DNA of 54,818 bases from Gemmatimonadota bacterium (GCA_029262155.1 JAJCZW010000004.1:1-54818); one strand, 5' to 3'; numbered from the stretch's first letter, positions 1,070 through 54,654 are shown. A program made the numbers and translations. The notes: generated by a model not told the origin, from the sequence alone.

Positions 1070-2182
1070 ATGAGTTTGCCAATTACGTTTCTGGCGGCCC
1101 TTTCCCTCGTGGCTGGCCAGGTCGACTGGAAGCTGTCGGATCAACCCATTCAGGTGACGGGTACGCCGAACGGAGCCGACGCCGGCATACTCGGTCGAGT
1201 CGTTGGGGTGACTCGTTTTAAGAATGGCTCCCTCGTCGTCGCCGACCGGCAGTCGCTAAGTCTGCATCGTTTCGACACCTCGGGGCGATCCGTCGGCATG
1301 ATTGGAAGAGCGGGTGCAGGACCGGGAGAATTCCGGACCATTCAGTCCATGAGGCGGTGTGCCGGCGACTCCCTCTTCGTCTATGATCCCTCCCTACTTC
1401 GGATTTCAGTGTTCTCCCCTGAGGGAAACTTCTCCCGCACCATTCCCCTCGCTGACGCGGCCGGTGGCGGGCCACCACCATATGAATTCTACTGCAACGA
1501 GAACGGCGTATTGGCACTTCTCCACCGGTCGCTCGCACCACCCGCGGGGGTAGGCCCCAGGCGGCCGAACGTCGCGGTGACGATCATCCAGCCGAACGAT
1601 CGCCTCGTGAGTGTGGGGACATTTCCGGCCTCCGAGAGATATTTTAATGGATCCGAAGATTTTGCCCGCCCCTTGGGAAAACAAACCTCGCTTGCCGTTG
1701 GCTCCACCACTCTCTATATCGGAACCGGTGACCACGTTGACGCTCGGGACTCTGTCCGAATCGTCGGCTACTCCTTTCAGGGAAATGAGAGGATCGTGAT
1801 CCGTGATCGCTTCGCGACTGTGCCACTCAGCGCGAGGCGACTATCGGCCTATATCGAGCAACAGGCATCTCGTCGGGCTGGCCGAGAAGAGGAGACGAGG
1901 GGCTTCTATCGTTCGCTTGAGTACCCGCCGACATTCCCAGCATACCGGAACGTTCTCGTTGACCCGACGGAGCACATCTGGGTCGAAGAATCACCCGTAC
2001 CAGGTGATGCCATCAGCCGCTGGAGAGTGTATTCGCCAAAGGGCCTGCTCCATGCCGCGGTGCGGATGCCAAGGAGTTTCCAGCTGATGGAGATCGGGAG
2101 CGACTATGCCGTTGGGGTCTGGCGGGATGAGATGGACATAGAAACAGTTCGGGTATACCGGTTGATCAAGACCGATTCTTGA
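1070..2182 (+). CDS. secreted 6-bladed beta-propeller family protein (paralog 1 of 3 in the window)
   Basis: ORF 926..2182 trimmed to ATG 1070, where a signal peptide starts (MSLPITFLAALSLVAGQ). Carries the blade motif GAGPGEF, shared with the ORFs at 47120..48235 (GSGPGEF) and 48619..49791 (GHGGNEF). Confidence 0.75.
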   Translation: MSLPITFLAALSLVAGQVDWKLSDQPIQVTGTPNGADAGILGRVVGVTRFKNGSLVVADRQSLSLHRFDTSGRSVGMIGRAGAGPGEFRTIQSMRRCAGDSLFVYDPSLLRISVFSPEGNFSRTIPLADAAGGGPPPYEFYCNENGVLALLHRSLAPPAGVGPRRPNVAVTIIQPNDRLVSVGTFPASERYFNGSEDFARPLGKQTSLAVGSTTLYIGTGDHVDARDSVRIVGYSFQGNERIVIRDRFATVPLSARRLSAYIEQQASRRAGREEETRGFYRSLEYPPTFPAYRNVLVDPTEHIWVEESPVPGDAISRWRVYSPKGLLHAAVRMPRSFQLMEIGSDYAVGVWRDEMDIETVRVYRLIKTDS

Positions 2183-2653: not shown

Positions 2654-3043
2654 ATGTCGTGCATGCCCGCGGCACTATTCCTCATGCTTACCTGGACGAC
2701 CTATGAACGCCTTCCGATGATCAGGTCTGCGGAAAGAGCGCTCTTGAGCCGATTCATTCCGACGGTCTGTGATCGATACCAGATGAGCGTCATCGCCTTG
2801 GGATATGTTGCAGATCATCTCCACTTGGTTCTGCGCGCGCCACCGGTCATGGACATTCCGAGGCTCGTTCAGCATTTGAAAGGGGCGAGCGCGCGGATCA
2901 TCAATCGGACTCTCGACGGACCCGGTCTTCGGTGGGCACCTGGCTACACCGTGCAGTCGATTAGTCCGGACAGGCTCAAAAACTCGATCGCATATGTGCG
3001 AAACCAGCATCTGCGACATCCGGATCGTGCGATTCCCCTGTAA
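2654..3043 (+). CDS. REP-associated tyrosine transposase (RAYT; IS200/IS605-type Y1 HUH transposase)
   Basis: HUH motif in VADHLHLVLRAP. Catalytic Tyr region SIAYVRNQHLRH. N-terminal strand ALFLMLTWTTYERLPMI is typical of the family. About 129 aa, flanked by REPs. Confidence 0.85.
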   Translation: MSCMPAALFLMLTWTTYERLPMIRSAERALLSRFIPTVCDRYQMSVIALGYVADHLHLVLRAPPVMDIPRLVQHLKGASARIINRTLDGPGLRWAPGYTVQSISPDRLKNSIAYVRNQHLRHPDRAIPL

Positions 3044-19674: not shown

Positions 19675-20316
19675 CTATCGCGTACCGAAGAGACGGTCCC
19701 CGGCATCGCCCAGGCCGGGGAGTATGTACCCCTTCTCGTTGAGCTGTCGATCGAGTGCCGCGGTGAAGATCGGTACGTCGGGATGGGCATCCAGTAAGGC
19801 CTGCACCCCTTCAGGGGCCGCGACGAGACAGAGGAACCTAATCCGACCAGCGCCGGCATCCTTCAATGTCTGGATCGCAGCCACTGCCGACCCCCCAGTG
19901 GCGAGCATCGGATCGAGGAGAAAGAAGTCACGGTCCGATTCAGCTGCCGGCACCTTGAAGTAGTAGCTCACCGGGCGGAGTGTCTCATGGTCGCGGTAAA
20001 GCCCGATATGCCCGACCCGTGCCGAAGGAATGAGCTGGGCGATCCCCTCAACCATGCCGAGGCCTGCCCGAAGGATCGGTACAAGCGCGAGCTTCTTCCC
20101 CGCGACCCTTCGGCCCATCGTCTGTTCCAAGGGGGTGTCGACTTCGACGGTTTCGGTCGGAAGGTCACGGGTGACCTCGTAGGTCATCAGCATCGCAATC
20201 TCGTTGACCAGCTGCTTGAAATCCTTCGTGGAGGTCGACCGCTGACGAAGAATGGTAAGCTTGTGCTGAATCAGAGGATGTGCGACGATGGTCAGATTGG
20301 CAAAGGATCCTGGCAT
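19675..20316 (-). CDS. upp: uracil phosphoribosyltransferase
   Basis: [20 protein letters not shown], and PRPP loop [11 protein letters not shown]. Confidence 0.9.
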
Positions 20317-20428
20317 TCTCGCAATATGGGCCGTGGTTCTCGGCACCGGAAGCACCTTGTTCCGGGTGGCATCGTCTCCGGGACCCGAGCGTAGCGAGAC
20401 GATCGGCCCCTGGAGGTGTGATGCCTCG

Positions 20429-21016
20429 TTAGAAACGATACCCGAACCCTGCTCCGATCACGAGTGGATTGATATCCAGGTTAAATGCCGTTGTACCGCC
20501 TTGGTCGACATCGGTTGAGATGCTGATGTACTTGGCATCGAGATTGAAAACCGCCCGGGATGTGAGTATGAAATCGAAGCCAACCTGGCCAGCCAGCCCG
20601 AGACTCGTCGACAGATCAAAGTCGACCAACGGCCCCGACTTGTTGTAGAAAAAGGTGGCGTTCCCACCCCCACCGATATAGGGTCGGACCGTACCCCGGG
20701 TCACCGGGTGAAACTGAAAGAGAAGCGTCGGAGGAAGATGGTTTACCGCGCCAAGGCTGCCGTTTGGACCCAGGACCTCCTGAGCGGCAGAGGCGAGGAC
20801 CAACTCGAAAGCAAACTGGCGGTGTATGAAGTAACTGATGTCGATCTCAATTGTCGCATCGGACTCGACGTCAAGGCCAGCCGGTGTACTGGATGCGTCG
20901 GGGATGATGGCGATTCCGCGACCGCGAATGAGCCAGGGATGTTCGGGTTGCTGGGCGGTGGCGGCAGCCGGTAGGAGTAGGAGAACCGCAAGGCAACCGA
21001 GAATACACTTTCTCAT
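20429..21016 (-). CDS. OmpW family outer membrane protein
   Basis: Signal peptide, alternating beta-strand pattern, C-terminal ...GAGFGYRF. Confidence 0.8.
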
Positions 21017-44812: not shown

Positions 44813-45061
44813 GTGGCGACCTTGCCCAAGTTCATCGATTCCCATCCCATGAAGCCGGTGACGTCAGACACCTTGCGGCAGCTGCAGGATGCGCCTCCGG
44901 ACGAGTTCGGAGTCACGCACCACGATATCCTGTTCAACGAGCAGGAGAACAAGATTTACTGCGTGCTGAACGCTCCGAACCTCGACGCAGTGCACAAGCA
45001 TCACGCGAAGGCCGGTATCAGCTGCGATTGGGTGCAGGAGGTGAAGTCGACCCGAGCGTGA
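44813..45061 (+). CDS. DUF4242 / SCO4226-like small protein
   Basis: PKFIDSHPM...THHDILFNEQENKIYCVLNAPNLDAVHKHHAKAGISCDWV. Confidence 0.75.
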   Translation: MATLPKFIDSHPMKPVTSDTLRQLQDAPPDEFGVTHHDILFNEQENKIYCVLNAPNLDAVHKHHAKAGISCDWVQEVKSTRA

Positions 45062-46164: not shown

Positions 46165-46579
46165 CCGGAGGTGAAGCGGAGTGATTGCTCGGAGGCAGGG
46201 ATGGATCGGGGCGGAGTAGATCCAACCGTGAGCCCTCCGGGGTCGGAGTGGCTCCGTCATTGCGCCCTTCCCGATCATCTCGGAAAGACCAACGGGGCGC
46301 GCTTGGGTGCCGGAGTCGCAATGTTTCTGAGCGTCAACTAGATCCTGATTCAGAACCGGTTCTCTCCCGGATACGACGGCACCTTACTGATAGCCCAGTT
46401 TCTTCTTCTGGCCGGTGCGTCGGGTCGGATGCTCGGCGTTGACCGTTATCTTCCCCGCCGCTGGCGATCGGTTCCGATTGGGTAGCGTGTCACTACTAGA
46501 AGCCTGCGGCATTCCGTCCGCCGTGCGGCCACGTGCGGAGGAGACTTAGGTTACGACGGTCCCCCTACAAGGGGTAACC

Positions 46580-46955
46580 GTGAAGAACTGGTAGCGATCA
46601 AGGCCAGAGGCCACGTTCCTCGTGCTGGCTCTGCTTGGATGTTCCGCTCCCGAGCCCGAGAGTTTCACGGAGGCCGATGCCCTTGCCGTTCGCGACAGGC
46701 GTCATCGCATTGGAGAACGCGTTGAACCTCGCGGTCGACGGCCTCGATTGTGAGGCTGGGTTGGTGATGATACAGGGCCAGGAGCCGGTGTTCGTGTCCA
46801 ACGGGCATGTGGTGCGCACCGACGGCGCTCTCCGGGATCAGTGTGAGAGGATAGTGGCTCAGCGCACCGGCGCGACGTTTTGGTTGGAAGGAGGAGTCGG
46901 TGGCTTGAGGGTGACAGAACGGAGAAAAAGCTTTTTTGGGTGGATATGGTGTTAG
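46580..46955 (+). pseudogene. lipoprotein-like gene interrupted by an in-frame TAG (46592-46594) and a frameshift
   Basis: GTG-AAG-AAC-TGG-TAG-CGA... then RPEATFLVLALLGCSAPE (lipobox) in the same frame, ending at TGA 46751. The protein-like continuation (ALENALNLAVDGLDCEAGLVMIQGQEPVFVSNG...) is in another frame, to 46955. Confidence 0.3.
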
Positions 46956-47119
46956 GGCCGGCACGATCGCCGGGCCTCGACCGTTCCCGCCCCGCGGGGG
47001 AAGGGCCGGGGTGAAGGCTTCCGTCGCGGCAGGCACCGAAGCCCGGCGCTTCAGCCTGAGAACATGCATGGCGTTGGCCCTCCGCTGCCAAGAGGATGAT
47101 TCTGATGAGACGCTCGGCA

Positions 47120-48235
47120 TCACCGTCGGAGGACGGCGTGGATCAGCGTTTCGACATCATCCTCGTCGCGGCTCACGCCAAGGATCCTGGTGCCATTGAC
47201 TTCGAGCAGAGTGAATCGCTCCGGCAGCGTCACGGTCTCCGGTGGCGAACGGTCGGGCCGCAGGACAACCCACCGCGGGGGGTCCCCCGGTTCCACGATC
47301 ACTTCGACCCAGACATCCCCCTCTGCGGTGGAGAGTAGGCGGCCAAAGAGCGGCATATGTTCCGGGGCTTCGGCCAGTGAGGACGGATCCAGATGGAGTC
47401 GGGCCCTTCTCTCCTCGACCACGGCATTCTCCGCTGGCGTCGCTTTCCGCGGTTCAAGCGGCACGGGTATGCTGTCCAGGACGACTCCGGCAGCCGAGAA
47501 CAGGCGGATCTCCGGGGTGTCGGAGAACCCGACCCAGACGCCGTGCCCCCTTCGGTCGACTGTGGCCTGGAGACGAGGGCCGTGGGGGTGCACGCTCGTC
47601 GTTGGTCCCCGGGAGTTTCTCCCCACAGTCATGTCGAATAGCGGGAACCTCCCGATCACTTCTGTCATGCTGTCACCTGGGACATAGGCTACTACCAAGG
47701 TCGAGTCGCGATACGTGGAAGTCGTCCTTTGTCCGTCGGGTACAGGGACCGTCTTCCCGACAATGACGAGAGCCCCCGATTCGAACTCCCCGACTACATC
47801 GGCACTCCACGAAGCGGCCGCGGTTTCCACCTGGGCCGAGCGAACCATTTGTCCATCCTCACCGACCCAGGTCACCCGGCGCAGGCTCCGGTCATAGGCC
47901 CATGCCGTTCCGTTCAGTGCAATACCGAACGCGGTGAGTTCGCGGAATTCCCCTGGTCCCGACCCAATGGTTCCAGACCAAGTCAGCGATGCCCCGGTCG
48001 AGGAGAAGAAATGCACCCGCGCCGCCTTGTGATCAGCCACCCCGATAACCCCGCTCGGAAAGGTGACGGCGCCAAGGATCTGCTCGAACCCCTGTCCGTC
48101 GGCGCCGCGTTCATGAGCCCACAGGATCTCGATTGTGGACTCCCTCCCCGGATCTGTTGGCGCGGGCAACTCCTGCCTGCACCCGGCGATCATGTATCCG
48201 AGTAGTGTGGCTACGGCGACCTTGATCATCCACAT
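47120..48235 (-). CDS. 6-bladed beta-propeller family lipoprotein (paralog 2)
   Basis: MWMIKVAVATLLGYMIAGC lipobox. GSGPGEF motif. Repeated blade-like segments. Confidence 0.8.
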   Translation of the reverse strand: MWMIKVAVATLLGYMIAGCRQELPAPTDPGRESTIEILWAHERGADGQGFEQILGAVTFPSGVIGVADHKAARVHFFSSTGASLTWSGTIGSGPGEFRELTAFGIALNGTAWAYDRSLRRVTWVGEDGQMVRSAQVETAAASWSADVVGEFESGALVIVGKTVPVPDGQRTTSTYRDSTLVVAYVPGDSMTEVIGRFPLFDMTVGRNSRGPTTSVHPHGPRLQATVDRRGHGVWVGFSDTPEIRLFSAAGVVLDSIPVPLEPRKATPAENAVVEERRARLHLDPSSLAEAPEHMPLFGRLLSTAEGDVWVEVIVEPGDPPRWVVLRPDRSPPETVTLPERFTLLEVNGTRILGVSRDEDDVETLIHAVLRR

Positions 48236-48304
48236 CCCTCCAACTGCTGACGTAACGCGTGGGTCGTGTGCTTCATGAGGTGTAGCAACTTCCCTACTTG
48301 TCCC

Positions 48305-48532
48305 TCAGGGGCACGACGTGAAGAAGGTGCAACCACAGCCCTCAAGCGAATCCTTCGGGCAGCACCACCGCTCAAAGGCTCCAGCGCACTCCGATCCAGA
48401 ACAGTTGCAGGTGTTGTGGTTTGCCAAGGCCGTCGAGGTGGGCAGCAGCATGAATCCAGCCGAGAGAACAAGGCCAGTAACAATCATGGCCCGGGTCTTC
48501 CTAGCAATTCCCTGTAAGAGATGATTCACCAT
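48305..48532 (-). CDS. small secreted cysteine-rich peptide precursor (75 aa; predicted 38-aa mature part with 8 Cys)
   Basis: ATG 48532 with GGAGGA 7 nt upstream. Signal peptide MVNHLLQGIARKTRAMIVTGLVLSAGFMLLPTSTALA. Mature part NHNTCNCSGSECAGAFERWCCPKDSLEGCGCTFFTSCP. Sits in the 383-nt gap between the two propeller genes on the same strand. Confidence 0.55.
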   Translation of the reverse strand: MVNHLLQGIARKTRAMIVTGLVLSAGFMLLPTSTALANHNTCNCSGSECAGAFERWCCPKDSLEGCGCTFFTSCP

Positions 48533-48618
48533 GATGACGTTCCTCCATGAAACAGGTTTATCACGAATCACACAACCCACGTTTCGATTACGAGACACAC
48601 TTGGCCGCAGCAGATTCT

Positions 48619-49791
48619 TTAGATCTCGGAGACACCCTCCAGCGACAGCCACACTAGCACTCGCCTGGTCCTACTACCACCTGCGGTAGCAAGGAGCAAT
48701 CGTCCCTTATCACTTGTGACAATCCTATCGGTTGCTGGCAGATAGAAACGACCGATTAGCGTTCCCGACAGTGCCATGGCAACCCACCGAACCGAATCGG
48801 ATTCCGCCTCGATGGACTCACGAATGAGTACGACATCGGTGTCAGTGCAATGGAGGTCGGTGATTGCTGGGTGGTTCGCTGGGGCAGAAGCCGCCGCCTT
48901 CTCTAGCTCCCTTTGGGCCGCCTCTTGTAGTGGTGGAAGTGCCTTGCCCCGGCCCATCTGTTGCGTCCGCCCACTTCTTCGCTCCATCTCCCGGCTGACA
49001 TCCCTGCTCGTAACCGCCCGTCCTGCCCAAGGCCCCCGTATGACGCGCTTCGTCCCAGGTGCATTAGCTGGAAAGACGATGAGGGTGAATTGCGCCTCCG
49101 GCGCCAGTATGACCGTACCATCACGGCATGCCGTCCACGTTGGTCGCGCCTGGAAGAACCTGGGAATCGGGCGATAGCGGGCGTTTGTCGTTGCTGCGGG
49201 AACCGTCCACGAAGCAAGAGTGTCTGGCAAGGTGTCTGAACCACGCAGACGAAGTGCCGCAGTCAAGACAGGGCTACCGAGCTGGGAGCTCGGTGCGTGC
49301 GTGAAAGCAAGCAGGCCGGGTTCGATTGACATTATCCCGACAATGTCAGGTGGCACCTCGAGTGCCCACATGCCAGTGGCTCTTCCGGTGCTGTCAAATA
49401 CCAGCACCTTGGACCCTACGAGATCAACAAGGAACACCGCTCCATCAGGGAAGGCCCCCAAAGTCAGAGCCGATTCAAACTCGTTGCCTCCATGCCCTAC
49501 TACCCCGAAGCTCATGGCGCCGGAGCCGTTCGGCTTGCTACGACGCAATCCGTCGTATACCGAGGCAAGGACAAGCTTCCCATCCGTGGCCATTGCGGCC
49601 ACCGTGTTCGGACTTACCTCGCATCCGGACGACTCGGGTGGACGAAGACACAAAGTGTCACGGCGAACGGCAAGTAGCCGTACGTTCAAGTACTCCGCTC
49701 GGTTGATTCTCGTGGGCTGGATGTCGCTGTTAGTATCAGTTGATCTTCCGGAACAACTGAGGACGGCACACAGAACCAGCACGCCGATCAT
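48619..49791 (-). CDS. 6-bladed beta-propeller family lipoprotein (paralog 3)
   Basis: MIGVLVLCAVLSCSG lipobox (ORF start 49830 also possible). GHGGNEF motif. Confidence 0.8.
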   Translation of the reverse strand: MIGVLVLCAVLSCSGRSTDTNSDIQPTRINRAEYLNVRLLAVRRDTLCLRPPESSGCEVSPNTVAAMATDGKLVLASVYDGLRRSKPNGSGAMSFGVVGHGGNEFESALTLGAFPDGAVFLVDLVGSKVLVFDSTGRATGMWALEVPPDIVGIMSIEPGLLAFTHAPSSQLGSPVLTAALRLRGSDTLPDTLASWTVPAATTNARYRPIPRFFQARPTWTACRDGTVILAPEAQFTLIVFPANAPGTKRVIRGPWAGRAVTSRDVSREMERRSGRTQQMGRGKALPPLQEAAQRELEKAAASAPANHPAITDLHCTDTDVVLIRESIEAESDSVRWVAMALSGTLIGRFYLPATDRIVTSDKGRLLLATAGGSRTRRVLVWLSLEGVSEI

Positions 49792-49974
49792 ACGGTTTGC
49801 AGTCCGAGAGGAGCAGCAGGGACTGATCATCGACTGTTCAACAGTCCAGTTGGCGAGCTGCCGGCAGTCGCGAGATCAATGGCAGTGTAGACCTTCAGGG
49901 GGTCTACCAAGCCATACATGCTCATTAGCTTTGCAACATTTCGAACACCAAGGGCAGATACCACCACACGGCCA

Positions 49975-50272
49975 TCGGGCCAGACACGCACAACCGTGGG
50001 GACGCCAGCGACAACGGGTTCAAGCGTACCACAAGACCGTCACCGCCAACACTGGGCTGGACGTCTACTTCGCGGACCCACGCAGTCCCTGGCAGCGGGG
50101 CACGAACGAGAACACCAATCGGCTTCTGCGTCAGTATTTCCCGAAGGGCACGAGCATGGGATCGCTGACCCAAGATGATCTCGATGCGATTGCGGCCAAG
50201 CTGAACAGCCGACCGCGTAAGACGCTGGATTTCGATACCCCGGCCGAACGATTGGAAAGACTGTTGCATTGA
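49975..50272 (+). mobile_element. IS30-family transposase C-terminal remnant (frameshifted, N-terminus missing)
   Basis: ...AYHKTVTANTGLDVYFADPRSPWQRGTNENTNRLLRQYFPKGTSM...LNSRPRKTLDFDTPAE is the conserved IS30 DDE C-terminus. Only this tail of ORF 49220..50272 is meaningful. Confidence 0.7.
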
Positions 50273-50283
50273 CCGGTTGAGTC

Positions 50284-50550
50284 TACCGCCGCTTTTCCCA
50301 GGAACTCATGCTCTTGCCGCAGCACCGCCAGCTCCCGACGGAGGCGCCGCACCTCCTCCTCGGCGGTCTCCACCCGGACCGGGGCCGCCACCTCACCCCG
50401 CGCCACCAGCTGGTTCTTCCAGCCCCGCAGCTGCTCGGGGCGGAGCGACAACTCGCGGGCCACCTGGCTCACCGGCCGACCCAGCTCCGTGACCTGCCGG
50501 ACCGCTTCCTGCTTGAACTCGGGCGTGAAGGCCCGACGGATCTTTCCCAT
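50284..50550 (-). mobile_element. IS3-family OrfA (HTH) remnant; orfB absent
   Basis: MGKIRRAFTPEFKQEAVRQVTELGRPVSQVARELSLRPEQLRGWKNQL...LRRELAVLRQEHEFLGKAAV. Homology stops ~11 nt from the IS30 remnant. Confidence 0.75.
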
Positions 50551-50684
50551 GACACACCTCCGTGCCTCTAATATCGAGGCAATGGCGGTGTCCATCAAAT
50601 CGAGGCCACTTCACTCTGGAATGCCGCTAGTGATCGCAAAACCGTATGTTGGGACATGTCCCTGCCTGATAGGTCTCCCGGACA

Positions 50685-50713
50685 TTGACAGTTACACTAG
50701 AATCTCACATATT
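50685..50713 (+). promoter_or_regulatory. possible promoter of the antitoxin-Doc operon
   Basis: TTGACA (50685-50690), 17-nt spacer, CATATT (50708-50713), in an AT-richer stretch ~55 nt upstream of ATG 50770. Confidence 0.3.
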
Positions 50714-50769
50714 TGGCAGTGTTACTTGAATGGTATTTCATAGAAGGCATTGCATTTAATGAGGTTGCC

Positions 50770-50997
50770 ATGATTACGAGTCGTACTCGAATCCAAGGAG
50801 CTTCGGTAGTCACAACCCTGCCGGCCGAAGTGGCCCGACGCCTGGCGATCAGCCCTGGGCAGGAGCTGGAGTGGATCGAGGACGGAATGGGAGGTTTCCG
50901 GGTTATACCGCATGCCACGGAGACGGCCGAAGCCTTGGACGCCCACAGCCGCATCATGGCGGAATATGACGGCGTCTTCCGTGTATTGGCCAGGTGA
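50770..50997 (+). CDS. AbrB/MazE/SpoVT-type antitoxin
   Basis: MITSRTRIQGASVVTTLPAEVARRLAISPGQELEWIEDG (swapped-hairpin barrel pattern). GAGG upstream. 4-nt overlap with doc. Confidence 0.8.
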   Translation: MITSRTRIQGASVVTTLPAEVARRLAISPGQELEWIEDGMGGFRVIPHATETAEALDAHSRIMAEYDGVFRVLAR

Positions 50998-51395
50998 GCG
51001 AACGGGCGGAGCCACGGTGGCTCACCGAACCCATTCTCTTGAACCTCCACGCCCAGCAGATAGAGCGATACGGCGGAGCGCATGGCATTCTGGATTCGAA
51101 TGTGGTCCTCTCTGCCTTGGCTCGCCCCATCAACCGGTGGGTCGATGATGCTGATGCGGACCTTGCCGATTTGGCGGCGGCTTACCTGGTGGGTTTCGCT
51201 CGAGCTCAAGGATTCGCCGATGGGAACAAGCGCACGGGCTTGGCATGCGCGCTCGTGTTTCTTTCGATTAACAGTGCTTCGCTTCATGTGCCAGGAAAGG
51301 AACTTTACGACTTGACAATGGCTGTGGCGAACAACCAAGCCGATGACGCCACCGTGGCGGACTACTTTCGTACGCGGCGATCGCAATCGACGTAA
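50994..51395 (+). CDS. doc: death-on-curing (Doc) family Fic-fold toxin, with Gln at the motif His position
   Basis: Aligns by eye to P1 Doc: LHAQQIERYGG, then AAYLVGFARAQGFADGNKRTGLACALVFL versus ATYLVATARGHIFNDANKRTALNSALLFL. Confidence 0.85.
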   Translation: MSERAEPRWLTEPILLNLHAQQIERYGGAHGILDSNVVLSALARPINRWVDDADADLADLAAAYLVGFARAQGFADGNKRTGLACALVFLSINSASLHVPGKELYDLTMAVANNQADDATVADYFRTRRSQST

Positions 51396-51424
51396 GAAGC
51401 CCGCCGGTCGGGGGCAGCCGCTTG

Positions 51425-51640
51425 TTAGCCCGGGGACGACGGTCCCCTCCCGGAATTAGCGCCCCGCACACGATTCACGAGCGTCGCAACTCCGTAGCTG
51501 AGTAGGAGTAGCACAGCCCACCAGTACTGCCAAAGAACTTCAGCGAGGCTGCGGTTGCCCTCGCGGGCCCATGAAACAACGTCGTAGAGGAACCCGAGCG
51601 TCGAAATCCCGAGAATGATGACAAGCAGTTTCTTCCGCAT
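51425..51640 (-). CDS. hypothetical small 2-TM membrane protein
   Basis: MRKKLLVIILGISTLGFLY...WWAVLLLLSYGVATLV. No homology call possible. Confidence 0.4.
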   Translation of the reverse strand: MRKKLLVIILGISTLGFLYDVVSWAREGNRSLAEVLWQYWWAVLLLLSYGVATLVNRVRGANSGRGPSSPG

Positions 51641-51759: not shown

Positions 51760-53067
51760 TCACAGGCTGGTCCAACGCCGTCGTAGTACCGCGCCTCGCT
51801 GGCTGTCCAGCATAGCCAGTGCCGCACGGTTCACGTCCAAGGAGTCCGTGAAGTCTCGGTTCGCGCCGAACACGCCATTCGATCCCAGGGTGCCTAGCAA
51901 GTCCTCGGCGTCGTTGAGCGTCTGCTCGTGTACCTGCCGCGCCTCGTCATAGCTCGCCGCATGCAGCGCTTGTGCCTGGCCGCGAAGAGCGTGCAGGTAG
52001 TGGCGGAAGGCGGCCTGCTCAGAGAACCGCACGGACGACGGCTGCACTCCGCTGAACAACTGGTCAGCGTAGCCCCCATCGAATTCGGACGGGGGCTTCA
52101 TGAGATCGAGCACGCCTTGTTCGTAGGCCACGTCGAGGAATGGGATCTTGTACTCCGAGAGAGCCTGCGGGCAGTAGTACCAAGTCGCTCTGCGCCTGAT
52201 CTCCTCTTCGTACTCCTTGTTAAACTTGTCGGGCGGAAACGACCGTACGTTCATCCACGTCCCGGAGCAGATGGCATTCGCTCTGGCGACATGCGCGGCG
52301 AGCATCTGATGGTTGCAATAGCCGAGGATTACCTGCGCGCCCGCCAGGCGCAGTCCAGCCGTCAGGTCGAGAACGTGCGCGAGCCAGATGGCATCCTGGA
52401 CAAGGTACTCGCCATTCGGATGCTCGCAGACGATGTAGTACCCATCGGCTCCCCACCGGGTGACCGCTTCGAGCAAGGTGGTGACCTGCTCGCGGCTTCG
52501 GGCGGTGTCCGCTCCAAGGGCGAGCGTAGCGAACACCTTGGTGCCGCCAGCCAGGTCGCGTGCAGTTGTCAAGAACGACTCATGATGCGCGAGCCAGAGA
52601 TCATCAACGGGATTGGCAAGGATCCCGGGGAGAATGATGGCCTCAGTGCCAAGGTCCTTGTTCAGCTCGACGATCTGCCTAACAAGGACCACCATCTCCG
52701 GGCCTTGGAAGAACGACCCGGAGGCGAAGTCGGCTGGCCAGAAACCGTGAGAGCAGAGTCGGTCGTGGTCGGCATGCGGGACGTAGAACTGCGGGTCAAG
52801 CAGGGTCTTCCCGCCTTCGATTCCAGCTACGTCGGCCGCCAAGCTACGCAGTTGTTTGTCGTTCAGGTCGCGGGGGCTCAGTACGACGGTGCCCCCGCCC
52901 CACTCCGTGAGTAGGTGGCGGCAGTGCTCCATCATCCCGAACCCGAACTGGAGGTGAACCTCCATCATCGTTCTCCCGCCGTGAAGGCGCAGGGGCATTG
53001 GCCAGCGCCGCAGGAACATGCCGCCAGGAACATGCAGCTCCATGTCATTGGACTCCCTCCAGGTCAC
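51760..53067 (-). CDS. hypothetical protein (~427-435 aa), third gene of the kinase cassette; alternating strand/helix pattern suggests an alpha/beta (possibly TIM-barrel-like) fold plus a helical C-terminal domain
   Basis: Long clean ORF. The alternative start ATG 53043 lies 1 nt after the kinase stop. Strand-like segments: VHLQFGFG, TVVLSPRDL, KTLLDPQFY, EAIILPGIL, KVFATLAL, YYIVCEHP, AQVILGYCNHQ, ANAICSGTWMN. No catalytic motif recognised. Confidence 0.7.
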   Translation of the reverse strand: MTWRESNDMELHVPGGMFLRRWPMPLRLHGGRTMMEVHLQFGFGMMEHCRHLLTEWGGGTVVLSPRDLNDKQLRSLAADVAGIEGGKTLLDPQFYVPHADHDRLCSHGFWPADFASGSFFQGPEMVVLVRQIVELNKDLGTEAIILPGILANPVDDLWLAHHESFLTTARDLAGGTKVFATLALGADTARSREQVTTLLEAVTRWGADGYYIVCEHPNGEYLVQDAIWLAHVLDLTAGLRLAGAQVILGYCNHQMLAAHVARANAICSGTWMNVRSFPPDKFNKEYEEEIRRRATWYYCPQALSEYKIPFLDVAYEQGVLDLMKPPSEFDGGYADQLFSGVQPSSVRFSEQAAFRHYLHALRGQAQALHAASYDEARQVHEQTLNDAEDLLGTLGSNGVFGANRDFTDSLDVNRAALAMLDSQRGAVLRRRWTSL

Positions 53068-53938
53068 ATAGTTCTTTGATCCATTCGTGGGCCTCTCGCG
53101 CAGTCTGGCACCGATGGACGGGATTCGGCTGTGCCAGCGTAGCCACTAGGTCAGCGAAGCCGTCCGGCAGAGGGCGCCCGAGGCGCGGAAGCTGCTGCGT
53201 CGATGCTCTCCTAATGATCTCGAAGCGATCTCGCGCGCCTTCGACGTGAGGATTGCCGCCAGTGGCAGCTTCGTAGAGGGTCACGCCAAGCGCGAAGAGG
53301 TCGGCGCGGGCGTCGATGTCGGGCTTGTCGTTCCGGCACTGCTCGGCGGGAGCGTAGCCGATGGTGCCGCAGCCTCCAGGTGCCACGGTCGCGGTCAGGG
53401 ACTCGAGATCGAGGTGTCTGGCAACACCAAAGTCGATGAGCCAGAACTCGCTCTGCGGGTCCACGATGATATTCGCTGGCTTCACGTCGCGGTGAACGAT
53501 GCTCACGGCTTCCGCGGCGACCAACGTCTCGGAGACGTGCAGTGCAAGTCGCAGGAGTTCGTGGTGTGCGAGCGTGCCAGCTCGGATTCGAGCGCTCAGG
53601 ACTTCCCCGGGAATCCGCTGCTCACGAAACCAGACGATCGTCCCAGTGTCGCCGGTGAGCTGACCGTGCTCGAAAATGCGCGGCATCCGGGGAGCCTGGA
53701 CCTTGGTCGCTGCCTCCAGCTCCCTCTCCGTTCGCGCCGGATCCGTCCCTGGGTGCATGAGCTTGATCACCACCTCACCGTCATTCGCATGCGTCGCGGT
53801 GAACACTTGCTTTTGACCGCCTGCGGCAAGCGCCTGGAGATCGGTGAGGTTCGGGAACTGGTGTACGAGCCAGCCGGGGTCTACCTGGGAGTGGTTGGGC
53901 ATGATCCTCGGTCGCTGCGGTTTCTGGAGACGCGCCAT
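53045..53938 (-). CDS. Hanks-type Ser/Thr protein kinase, kinase domain only
   Basis: Gly loop LAAGGQKQVF, VVIKLM (Lys), HRDVKPANII, DFGVAR, GTIGYAPAEQ, DLFALGVTLYE. Alternative start ATG 53902. Confidence 0.85.
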   Translation of the reverse strand: MARLQKPQRPRIMPNHSQVDPGWLVHQFPNLTDLQALAAGGQKQVFTATHANDGEVVIKLMHPGTDPARTERELEAATKVQAPRMPRIFEHGQLTGDTGTIVWFREQRIPGEVLSARIRAGTLAHHELLRLALHVSETLVAAEAVSIVHRDVKPANIIVDPQSEFWLIDFGVARHLDLESLTATVAPGGCGTIGYAPAEQCRNDKPDIDARADLFALGVTLYEAATGGNPHVEGARDRFEIIRRASTQQLPRLGRPLPDGFADLVATLAQPNPVHRCQTAREAHEWIKELCDLEGVQ

Positions 53939-54654
53939 GCAAGGTCATTCACGACCCACGACGCATAGGAGCGCGGCAGGGGCGCGGTGGAAGCTCCCCA
54001 CTCCCGAATTCCATCTTGCTCCGGGGAGAGCACGCCGATGCCGAATCGTTGCGCATCTCGCATCTGATCCTCGGACACCCGAGGCACAAGCACGTACGAT
54101 TTCGATGCGAACCAGGTGTTCAGCCGCGCTTGATTGAGCACGTCTGTCCACTTTCCGATCTTCGCCTCGACAGCGATGATCTTGGTAGCTGCGAAGGCGC
54201 GCTCTAAAGCACACGGGAACCAAGCCCGGCCGGCCGGCCGAACGAGCCCGGCGCCGTGCAGCCGCTCGGTCGACGACCGCGCGAAGCGGGAGCCGAAATG
54301 ATCCTCAAGTTCGGCGTGGGCGGCTCTACGACGCTGGAACACGTAGTGCATGAGCCGGAGGTCGTCCGGTACGAGTGCTAGGCGCGGTTCACCCCAGTCG
54401 GCGGTGCGGGCGGCGCGCCACACCACAATGACGAGGTCGGGGAACCCGGACTCGAGGCCGAGCTCGCGGAGCACCGTCACGCGGCTGTCCGGAGCATGGA
54501 CGAGCGGCATGGCGGGGATGAAGCGCTCCACGAGTTCCTGCTCGGGCCCCGGCAGAGTCCTTCGAAAGACTACACCCTCCGGCGCAGAGTCCCGGTCCAC
54601 GATCGTCGGGGTCACGGTGGAAGTCACGTTGGTCAGTGCCTTCTGTTCAGTCAC
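53881..54654 (-). CDS. hypothetical protein with PD-(D/E)xK nuclease-like motifs and a winged-helix-like insert; first gene of the kinase cassette
   Basis: GTG start 54654. ...LRELGLESGFPDLVIVVW... and ...KIIAVEAKIGKW... fit E / PD / ExK spacing. The intervening LRLMHYVFQRRRAAHAELEDHFGSRFARSSTERLHGAGLV looks like a wHTH. Confidence 0.6.
   Translation of the reverse strand: MTEQKALTNVTSTVTPTIVDRDSAPEGVVFRRTLPGPEQELVERFIPAMPLVHAPDSRVTVLRELGLESGFPDLVIVVWRAARTADWGEPRLALVPDDLRLMHYVFQRRRAAHAELEDHFGSRFARSSTERLHGAGLVRPAGRAWFPCALERAFAATKIIAVEAKIGKWTDVLNQARLNTWFASKSYVLVPRVSEDQMRDAQRFGIGVLSPEQDGIREWGASTAPLPRSYASWVVNDLAWRVSRNRSDRGSCPTTPR

Follow-up and report, generated by a model that had tools for sequence, protein, structure and literature searches.

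Why should two beta-propeller lipoprotein genes bracket a gene for a small, cysteine-rich exported peptide? The question is raised by a 54.8-kb stretch of DNA from a Gemmatimonadota bacterium (GCA_029262155.1, JAJCZW010000004.1:1-54818). The whole stretch is referred to here as the window, coordinates are counted from its first letter, and loci labeled L001 and so forth are other contigs. An earlier note on this DNA suggested that the propeller-peptide-propeller arrangement could represent a peptide together with its binder, maturase or immunity pair. The comparisons described below support this in part and point to the following answer: the locus would be a decayed copy of a conserved envelope module of Gemmatimonadales-like bacteria, in which a thioredoxin-like protein (X) and the A-type propeller (prop3) fold a disulfide-knotted peptide, and the B-type propeller (prop2) binds it. 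We give this reading an even chance of being correct. The intact module appears to consist of three or four genes, encoding X, A, the peptide precursor with its putative Sec signal and, in one subclade, B.

In the window, three intact open reading frames (ORFs) lie on the minus strand: the A-type propeller gene at 48619..49830 (403 aa), the peptide gene at 48305..48532 (75 aa, nested within a longer ORF with a GTG start) and the B-type propeller gene at 47120..48235 (371 aa, or 369 aa from the second ATG). The A-type gene is separated from the peptide gene by 86 nt (48533-48618), and the peptide gene from the B-type gene by 69 nt (48236-48304); the ORF calls thus confirm the three same-strand genes and both gaps described in the earlier note. 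That note placed prop3 at 48619..49791. The gene is indeed there, but its start is more likely at 49830, because the ATG at this position overlaps the stop codon of a remnant of X (ATGA) and the same overlap is found in the syntenic contig L001. All three products carry export signals and are predicted, as had been proposed, to leave the cytoplasm. Promoter and terminator scans return nothing exceeding shuffled controls, the predicted fold of the intergenic RNA (48533..48618) is no more stable than that of shuffled sequence, and an Rfam search returns one tRNA only, with no family in the intergenic region.

The peptide gene and its cysteine scaffold

The precursor consists of a signal-peptide-like N-terminus, MVNHLLQGIARKTRAMIVTGLVLSAGFMLLPTSTALA, ending in ALA (residues 1-37, 48422..48532, minus strand), followed by a predicted mature peptide of 38 residues with 8 Cys, NHNTCNCSGSECAGAFERWCCPKDSLEGCGCTFFTSCP (48305..48421 including the stop codon, minus strand). 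A GGAGGA Shine-Dalgarno sequence is located 8 nt 5' of the ATG, within the 86-nt intergenic region (minus strand). By inspection of the family alignments, the N-terminal region shows a basic n-region, a hydrophobic stretch of at least 13 residues, and the invariant Pro31 and Ala35, with ALA, AMA or AFA preceding the conserved core; the cleavage site was placed by the same inspection. Across all frames and all start codons of the window, 2 small ORFs combine a signal-peptide-like N-terminus with at least 4 Cys. One is the peptide gene, and the other, at 20288..20518, overlaps larger minus-strand ORFs and is probably spurious.

The closest homolog, P0002 (74 aa, 70% identity), occurs on metagenome contigs, the longest of which, L001, carries the same cassette with products of 404, 74 and 369 aa at a nucleotide identity of 79%. 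Nucleotide homology between the window and L001 spans exactly 50027 to 47115. Within it, the ratio of nonsynonymous to synonymous substitution rates (dN/dS, Nei-Gojobori) rises from 0.19 for prop2 through 0.26 for prop3 to 0.32 for the peptide. Between the two peptide genes there is one in-frame 3-nt indel and 8/8 Cys are retained, and the intergenic regions, with identities of 79% and 76%, are conserved as much as the genes. A block of 29 identical nt 5' of the peptide gene includes the ribosome-binding site. Judged by these comparisons, the 75-aa ORF is a real gene, and the cassette genes are under purifying selection. The earlier note had proposed a search for the small ORF in other neighborhoods; it is kept in syntenic as well as distant loci, as a conserved gene, contrary to what the note said would refute its idea.

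Exhaustive HMMER searches of 1.84 billion cluster representatives and profile searches of 5.8 billion proteins together yield a family of 11 small proteins of 72-79 aa. Two long repetitive proteins also matched and were judged spurious. C42, C44, C49, C57, G67, C68, F71 and C74 are invariant, and the mature part, 38-42 aa long, follows the scaffold C-x-C-x(3-5)-C-x(6-10)-[YFW]-[EQ]-[RK]-[WLY]-C-C-x(4-9)-C-G-C-[TS]-[FY]-F-x(2,3)-C. The loop between C58 and C66 is hypervariable, with 4-9 residues and a sequence that differs between family members. In P0019, the sole six-Cys member, C58 and C66 are lost together (CC to CW, CGC to GGC). Because exactly these two Cys are missing, C58 and C66 are hypothesized to pair as a disulfide closing the variable loop, and the joint loss suggests more generally that the Cys of the peptide form disulfides rather than free thiols. 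The single Trp, beside the CC pair, gives way to L in P0002 and to Y in P0020, and a His just before the first Cys is restricted to the close subfamily and not conserved in the divergent half. The peptides end in ...SCP, ...SCGES, ...SCGET, ...NCQ, ...TNC, ...VMC, ...NGC or ...VVC, none of them in Gly, and no double-glycine leader is present in the family sequences.

Searches of Pfam, NCBIfam and the PDB with the peptide or its profile return nothing credible; matches to the eL40 zinc ribbon (E 0.03) and to HxsA3 (0.02) were dismissed. A scan of 185,579 species-representative genomes with the motif CGCTFFTS gives 23 pattern matches, and because none is a relative, the family is taken as absent from these genomes. 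A scan of metagenome contigs re-finds L016 and nothing else, and tblastn of the peptide against plasmids gives no match. Neither the peptide family nor that of X is annotated. Gene callers do record the 60-80-aa genes of these cassettes, none with a usable annotation.

X, the propellers and their linkage to the peptide

Clustering of all genes around the peptide homologs identifies X, a protein of ~212 aa with an N-terminal hydrophobic membrane anchor. Its invariant residues are YF[YH]RxDC(P/A)(A/P)C and a cis-Pro 'VP'; the active site reads DCPAC with VP invariant in L001, L013, L016 and L017, CAPC in L025 and CPAC in L026. The X profile matches structures of ResA thiol-disulfide oxidoreductases at E 5.5e-5 with the whole thioredoxin (Trx) domain aligned, Pfam hits to Redoxin (1.8e-5) and AhpC-TSA stay below threshold, and the NCBIfam MauD model gives no X match at E<=1. 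X is therefore a membrane-anchored, periplasm-facing ResA/TlpA-like protein of the Trx fold. The orthologs hold these features, and the window copy, reduced to residues 147-212, fails to do so. The CPAC dipeptide is not diagnostic of a reductant as opposed to an oxidant role, and no CcdA/DsbD or DsbB/VKOR genes are seen in the short contigs.

X and an A-type propeller stand beside the peptide gene in 6/7 distinct loci other than the window. The gene order is X - A - peptide - B in L001, the same followed by a Mutator transposase in L016, and X::A fusion - peptide - B in L013. L017 reads sigma factor - GerE - peptide - A - X, L025 reads A - peptide - X - glycosyltransferase, and L026 reads peptide - X - DsbA-like protein (CPFC) - A, the last cut by the contig end. 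L010/L012 retain an A remnant - peptide - B, with no X. X is accordingly a separate gene in L001, L016, L017, L025 and L026, and A-type propellers occur in these five and in L013. The fusion in L013 (3731-5464) encodes a membrane-anchored protein of 577 aa, of which residues 24-202 align with X and residues 250-573 with prop3; outside L013, the X and A genes are separate, overlapping or adjacent. A B-type propeller lies directly 3' of the peptide in the window, L001, L010/L012, L013 and L016. The X-A-peptide linkage persists at peptide identities down to about 30%, despite rearranged gene order, and every placeable family member adjoins A-type and/or B-type propellers, which bears out the linkage between peptide and propeller lipoprotein that the earlier note wished to see in a comparison of neighborhoods. 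The propeller-peptide-propeller triplet does not hold as the conserved unit. The conserved core is X, a prop3-type propeller and the peptide, with the prop2-type propeller confined to the subclade nearest the window, and propeller loci that have no peptide also have no X: L021, with four tandem copies, and L023.

The model of prop2 built with AlphaFold2 (AF2; predicted local distance difference test score, pLDDT, 82.6; predicted template modeling (TM) score, pTM, 0.82) is six-bladed and all-beta, with four-strand blades and one helical insert. Foldseek ranks NHL domains highest, those of Thin, Brat and TRIM2 (E 1e-10 to 1e-8, target-normalized TM 0.62-0.72), and the exported protein BF0058 of B. 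fragilis is also among the top matches. Against PDB sequences, the prop2-family profile finds the Thin NHL domain at 1e-33 and the prop3-family profile the TRIM2 NHL domain at 1.6e-17. Pairwise, prop2 and prop3 are barely alike (BLASTP E 4e-4 over 38 aa only), whereas their family profiles align in hhalign with a probability of 99.1% (E 7.5e-19, 357 columns, 16% identity). The paralogy asserted in the earlier note therefore holds at the profile level, where the two behave as very distant paralogs, and prop3 is likely to share the six-bladed fold on the strength of the same alignment. Orthologs are much closer: prop3 and its L001 counterpart share 76% identity, and prop2 orthologs in metagenome-assembled genomes (MAGs) of Gemmatimonadales share 75-78%. 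A search for relatives with a prop2-like alignment restricted to close members returns only two already known Gemmatimonadales MAGs.

Both propellers bear the lipoprotein signals attributed to them, IAGC with Cys19 in prop2 and VLSC with Cys26 in prop3, and a lipobox (pattern [LVI][ASTVI][GAS]C after a hydrophobic N-terminus) is found in 4/5 A-type and 6/7 B-type proteins. The G-x-GPGEF-type blade motif claimed for both is clean in prop2 (GSGPGEF) but degenerate in prop3 (GHGGNEF). Mature prop2 contains no Cys, nor do B-type proteins beyond the lipobox. A-type propellers possess an invariant Cys pair, C61/C70, with C234 and C328 kept in 4/5 members. No invariant His occurs among the conserved columns of either family alignment, and no invariant catalytic-type residue (His, or Cys beyond the A-type pair) is seen in the propeller families.

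A third family member, at 1070..2182 on the plus strand, is outside the module. It is related to prop2 as the earlier note stated (28% identity, E 2e-23) and has neither a lipobox nor a peptide or Trx neighbor. With 26.2 bits it exceeds the gathering threshold of Pfam DUF5128 (PF17170, 22.9 bits), whereas prop2 falls below it at 14 bits and prop3 gives no match. The adjoining toxin/immunity pair suggested for this paralog finds no support, the ORFs at 198-929 and 2654-3043 having no Pfam match; an IS200-like Y1 transposase is located just 3' of the paralog. In L021 (1547-6786), the third of the four tandem paralogs is the closest to prop2 (59% identity) and is split over three reading frames, being either a frameshifted pseudogene or the product of assembly errors. 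A further paralog (394 aa) in L013, just 5' of the X::A-peptide-B cassette, is followed 4 nt later by a Cys-rich secreted protein of 176 aa (CIGCDMCGGG...) with no family match (1249-2967).

Regulatory genes are found near several cassettes: an ECF-type sigma factor and a GerE/LuxR helix-turn-helix (HTH) protein in L017 (714-1509), a GerE HTH protein in L013 (486-884), a response regulator in L010 (3572-4162) and a DtxR/FeoA-type regulator adjoining the cassette in L013. The recurrence may hint at control of the cassette.

The combination of a Trx-like protein, an NHL propeller lipoprotein and a small Cys-rich exported peptide also recurs with unrelated peptides. The two Gemmatimonadales MAGs with prop2 orthologs (75-78%) share only that gene with the window at the nucleotide level. 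On its 5' side, both L008 (5824-7886) and L005 (155-1686) encode an unrelated 62-aa secreted 4-Cys peptide and another propeller with GSGPGEY, called as 268 aa by the gene caller and probably about 372 aa long. L008 additionally contains, 5' of the 62-aa peptide, an uncalled ORF of 161 aa with a CGSC motif, possibly Trx-like. A second region of L005 (7849-10133) encodes, in order, a Trx-like protein with a membrane anchor (CGAC; below-threshold match to Thioredoxin_2 at 6e-4), a 456-aa propeller lipoprotein with GSGPGEFR, whose start overlaps the Trx-like stop, and an unrelated 80-aa secreted 4-Cys peptide. At least 3 unrelated peptide families are seen across such cassettes.

In the window itself, A, the peptide gene and B are intact, and the X oxidoreductase and the native upstream region are lost. 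X, the most informative partner, escaped the earlier note: an insertion sequence (IS)-related rearrangement has cut it to its last 66 codons, at 49830..50027 on the minus strand, and neither the membrane anchor of the N-terminus nor the CPAC active site is left. In tblastn the remnant matches residues 147-212 of L001 X with 82% identity (E 7.6e-31), and nucleotide homology to L001 ends at 50027. The source run is a biofilm metagenome, and a Logan contig assembled independently from it covers 47993-51500 with zero differences; because this contig spans the junction, the truncation is real and not an assembly artifact of the window.

IS debris at 50028..50598 has taken the place of the lost 5' portion of X and of the native upstream region. 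The debris comprises a C-terminal transposase fragment on the plus strand (about 50028-50272; no Pfam match, judged IS30-like by eye from its translation) and an IS3-type OrfA ORF on the minus strand (50131-50598; Pfam HTH_Tnp_1, 9.9e-17). Directly beyond the debris, at 50713-51395, comes what looks like a Phd/Doc-like toxin-antitoxin pair: the gene for a MazE-type antitoxin (PF04014, 1.2e-7) shares 4 nt with that for a Fic/Doc toxin (PF02661, 8.6e-14). Farther on, the minus strand at 51760-54654 carries three genes with overlapping ends, possibly an operon of defense-island type: a 435-aa ORF lacking a Pfam match, then a Ser/Thr protein kinase (53045-53938), then a 257-aa ORF with no match. 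On the other side, an 82-aa SCO4226-like nickel-responsive protein (PF14026, 5.9e-11) is encoded at 44813-45061, about 2 kb 3' of the cassette, and no convincing gene is found between it and prop2 (46170-47110).

Proposed mechanism and competing explanations

In the proposed mechanism, the precursor would leave by the Sec route and lose its signal peptide through cleavage behind the A-x-A motif. Propeller A would then serve as a client-binding platform for X, which would form or reshuffle the four disulfides of the peptide. The knotted product would display the hypervariable loop closed by the C58-C66 disulfide, and the Cys-free lipoprotein B would hold or recognize the folded peptide as a receptor, carrier or immunity partner. 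X and A are regarded as one working unit because of the gene fusion and the translational coupling, and a dedicated isomerase-type helper is plausible because four disulfides in 38 residues allow 105 pairings. Trx-like helpers for Cys-rich exported products and the pairing of Trx-like and NHL domains both have precedents. The export route, the redox direction, the binding partners and the final role of the peptide are what we infer from sequence. The variability of the loop, the exchange of whole cassettes, and the IS and toxin-antitoxin genes around the locus point to a possible role in cell-cell recognition or competition. A broader version, which we hold tentatively and well short of an even chance, is that Gemmatimonadales carry swappable envelope cassettes, each with a Trx-like oxidoreductase, an NHL-propeller lipoprotein and its own Cys-rich peptide, the propeller serving as the client-binding domain and the knotted peptide as a strain-specific ligand (pheromone, bacteriocin or recognition tag).

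Several observations weigh against the folding module. With X truncated and the native upstream region lost, the copy in the window may not function, or may depend on general Dsb enzymes. Proteins of the ResA/TlpA type are usually reductants, so X may, by analogy, keep the Cys reduced instead of oxidizing them. L017 and L025 lack B, whereas the contig of L026 does not reach far enough to decide; the core can thus do without B. None of the loci is seen to encode an outer-membrane exporter, which argues against recognition or competition. With a pLDDT of 65, the AF2 model of the peptide is too uncertain to establish a fold or a disulfide map. Profile searches of the PDB with the X and A families list no structure of NHLRC2 or SOQ1, two proteins of comparable architecture, at E<=1 (the presence of their chains in the library was not checked), and the resemblance to them appears to be architectural only. 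The peptide family is tiny, most of its contexts are short metagenome contigs, and none of the RNA runs searched holds the locus.

The same maturation could serve an antagonist. The peptide would then be a Sec-dependent, disulfide-rich bacteriocin or toxin, X a folding helper like PedC, and one propeller lipoprotein the immunity protein or a target-side receptor; this explanation differs from the folding module in committing to an antagonistic role. The PedC precedent (PMC4919988) speaks for it, as do the hypervariable loop, the entirely different Trx/peptide/propeller cassettes that precede orthologous prop2 genes in different genomes, and the position of the cassette, amid IS fragments and a toxin-antitoxin pair in the window and next to a Mutator-family transposase in L016. 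However, a Sec signal alone would leave the peptide in the diderm periplasm, and neither an outer-membrane exporter nor an ATP-binding cassette (ABC) transporter nor a double-glycine leader is seen in any locus, although bacteriocins that use Sec would not be caught by a search for such class II features. The dN/dS of 0.32 in one close pair is purifying, not diversifying, and no PADLOC or bacteriocin family was matched or tested; a dedicated toxin is unlikely. The redox direction is reversed in another reading, in which the peptide would be a mini-protein that binds metal, for example copper, in the periplasm, while the TlpA-like reductase X would keep its thiols reduced and the propellers would act as docks. 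TlpA keeps the thiols of Sco and CoxB reduced, the best structural relatives of X are reductant-type ResA proteins, the CxC, CC and CxC clusters recall metallothionein motifs, a His precedes the first Cys in the close subfamily, and the DtxR/FeoA-type regulator stands beside the L013 cassette. Yet C58 and C66, lost jointly in P0019, look more like a disulfide pair than like ligands acting independently, the divergent half of the family does not keep the His, L026 co-encodes a DsbA-like oxidase, and genes for metal transporters or chaperones do not recur among the loci; metal binding is rather improbable.

An enzymatic role for the propellers fares worse. The gene logic of a propeller, a membrane-anchored Trx-like helper and a small Cys-rich exported protein equals that of methylamine dehydrogenase (MauB, MauD and MauA, MauB being a 7-bladed soluble propeller subunit), and the peptide could be the small disulfide-rich subunit of such a heteromeric periplasmic enzyme with a propeller as the large subunit. 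Against this stand the lack of an invariant catalytic-type residue in the propellers, the absence of MauE, MauG or cytochrome genes from the loci, the failure of X to match the NCBIfam MauD model, and a mature peptide of only 38 aa; a Trp-derived quinone cofactor, for which MauA uses two Trp, is unlikely, given that the single Trp beside CC varies. We consider a dehydrogenase-like subunit very unlikely. The analogy drawn in the earlier note to peptidyl-alpha-hydroxyglycine alpha-amidating lyase (PAL) would make the propellers PAL-like or other peptide-modifying enzymes and the peptide the precursor of a ribosomally synthesized peptide that is post-translationally modified (RiPP). A conserved Zn-binding His triad and catalytic residues are the hallmark of PAL, and with no invariant His among the conserved columns of either propeller family (PAL itself was not aligned residue by residue) the His3-Zn site is not conserved here. 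The prop2-family profile does match the PAL domain of PAM (3fvz), weakly (E 1.5e-6) and over blades 1-2 only (about 105 residues), a match owed to the NHL repeat that the two have in common. The last residue of the peptides is Pro, Cys, Gln, Ser or Thr and never the Gly that the analogy calls for, their N-terminal region resembles a Sec signal rather than a RiPP leader, and Pfam searches of all neighboring genes with further scans detect no radical SAM, YcaO, LanM-type or other known RiPP enzyme in any locus, so neither the PAL analogy nor the natural-product maturase setting holds up, and only a slim chance is left to a RiPP pathway. Just as slim is the chance that the adjacency is meaningless, an expanded lipoprotein family happening to flank a small gene. 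The propeller family is indeed large and often arranged in tandem without peptides (L021, L023), but all placeable members of the very rare peptide family adjoin A- and/or B-type propellers, 6/7 adjoin X, the linkage is kept at 30-40% peptide identity with rearranged gene order, and an X::A gene fusion exists.

Significance and comparison with known systems

If the folding module is correct, it provides a compact, genetically defined pair of a Trx-like/NHL-propeller oxidoreductase and its client peptide. The clients of NHLRC2, which is linked to FINCA disease, and of SOQ1 are poorly defined, and a bacterial operon in which the substrate is encoded alongside would offer a convenient model of how an NHL propeller presents a client to a Trx domain. 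With the module, a phylum that is almost uncultured would also contribute a family of mini-proteins with four disulfides that has no annotation so far, and four-disulfide scaffolds are of interest as stable peptide frameworks or antimicrobials. Should the swappable-cassette version hold, it would represent the first Trx-like/NHL enzyme of NHLRC2/SOQ1 architecture with its natural client encoded beside it, and a new class of disulfide-knotted peptides in diderm bacteria. The locus further illustrates an annotation problem: its small genes are without usable annotation, and the key partner X is hidden in the window by IS-mediated truncation. No description of the four-gene module and no papers on DUF5128 or NVEALA were found in the literature.

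Among known systems, the mau cluster pairs a membrane-associated Trx-fold CxxC helper with a small Cys-rich exported protein and a propeller, as here. In that cluster, MauD is the Trx-like membrane-associated helper needed for the disulfides of the six-disulfide small subunit of methylamine dehydrogenase (bioRxiv 10.64898/2026.03.05.709764). The present loci differ in having no tryptophylquinone signature, MauE or MauG, a far smaller peptide, and 6-bladed NHL-type lipoproteins as propellers. In PedC/PapC systems, a dedicated Trx-like protein is likewise encoded beside a small Cys-containing exported peptide, PedC being an accessory protein that improves the correct disulfide pairing of pediocin (PMC4919988). 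Those systems, however, are Gram-positive and rely on double-glycine leaders, ABC transporters and small immunity proteins, with no propeller lipoproteins.

At the level of single proteins, X shares with ResA, TlpA and CcmG an N-terminal membrane anchor, the Trx fold, CxxC and cis-Pro, but it remains below Pfam thresholds and forms a small family of its own, tied to peptide loci and not to cytochrome maturation genes. The propellers resemble the 'putative exported' DUF5128 propellers of Bacteroides (BF0058, PDB 4raa) in fold, in a detectable sequence relationship and in being exported or lipoproteins, whereas membership by Pfam threshold extends only to the paralog at 1070..2182. The joint architecture is closest in outline to NHLRC2, described with fused Trx-like and NHL domains (PMC6107167), and SOQ1, described as a membrane-anchored fusion of the same domains on the non-cytoplasmic side (bioRxiv 10.1101/2021.03.16.435614). 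All of them join a Trx-like CxxC domain to an NHL propeller, the loci described here in one polypeptide in L013 and in overlapping genes elsewhere. Unlike NHLRC2 and SOQ1, the cassettes described here carry a candidate client in the same operon, and their propellers are lipoproteins of a DUF5128-like bacterial lineage.

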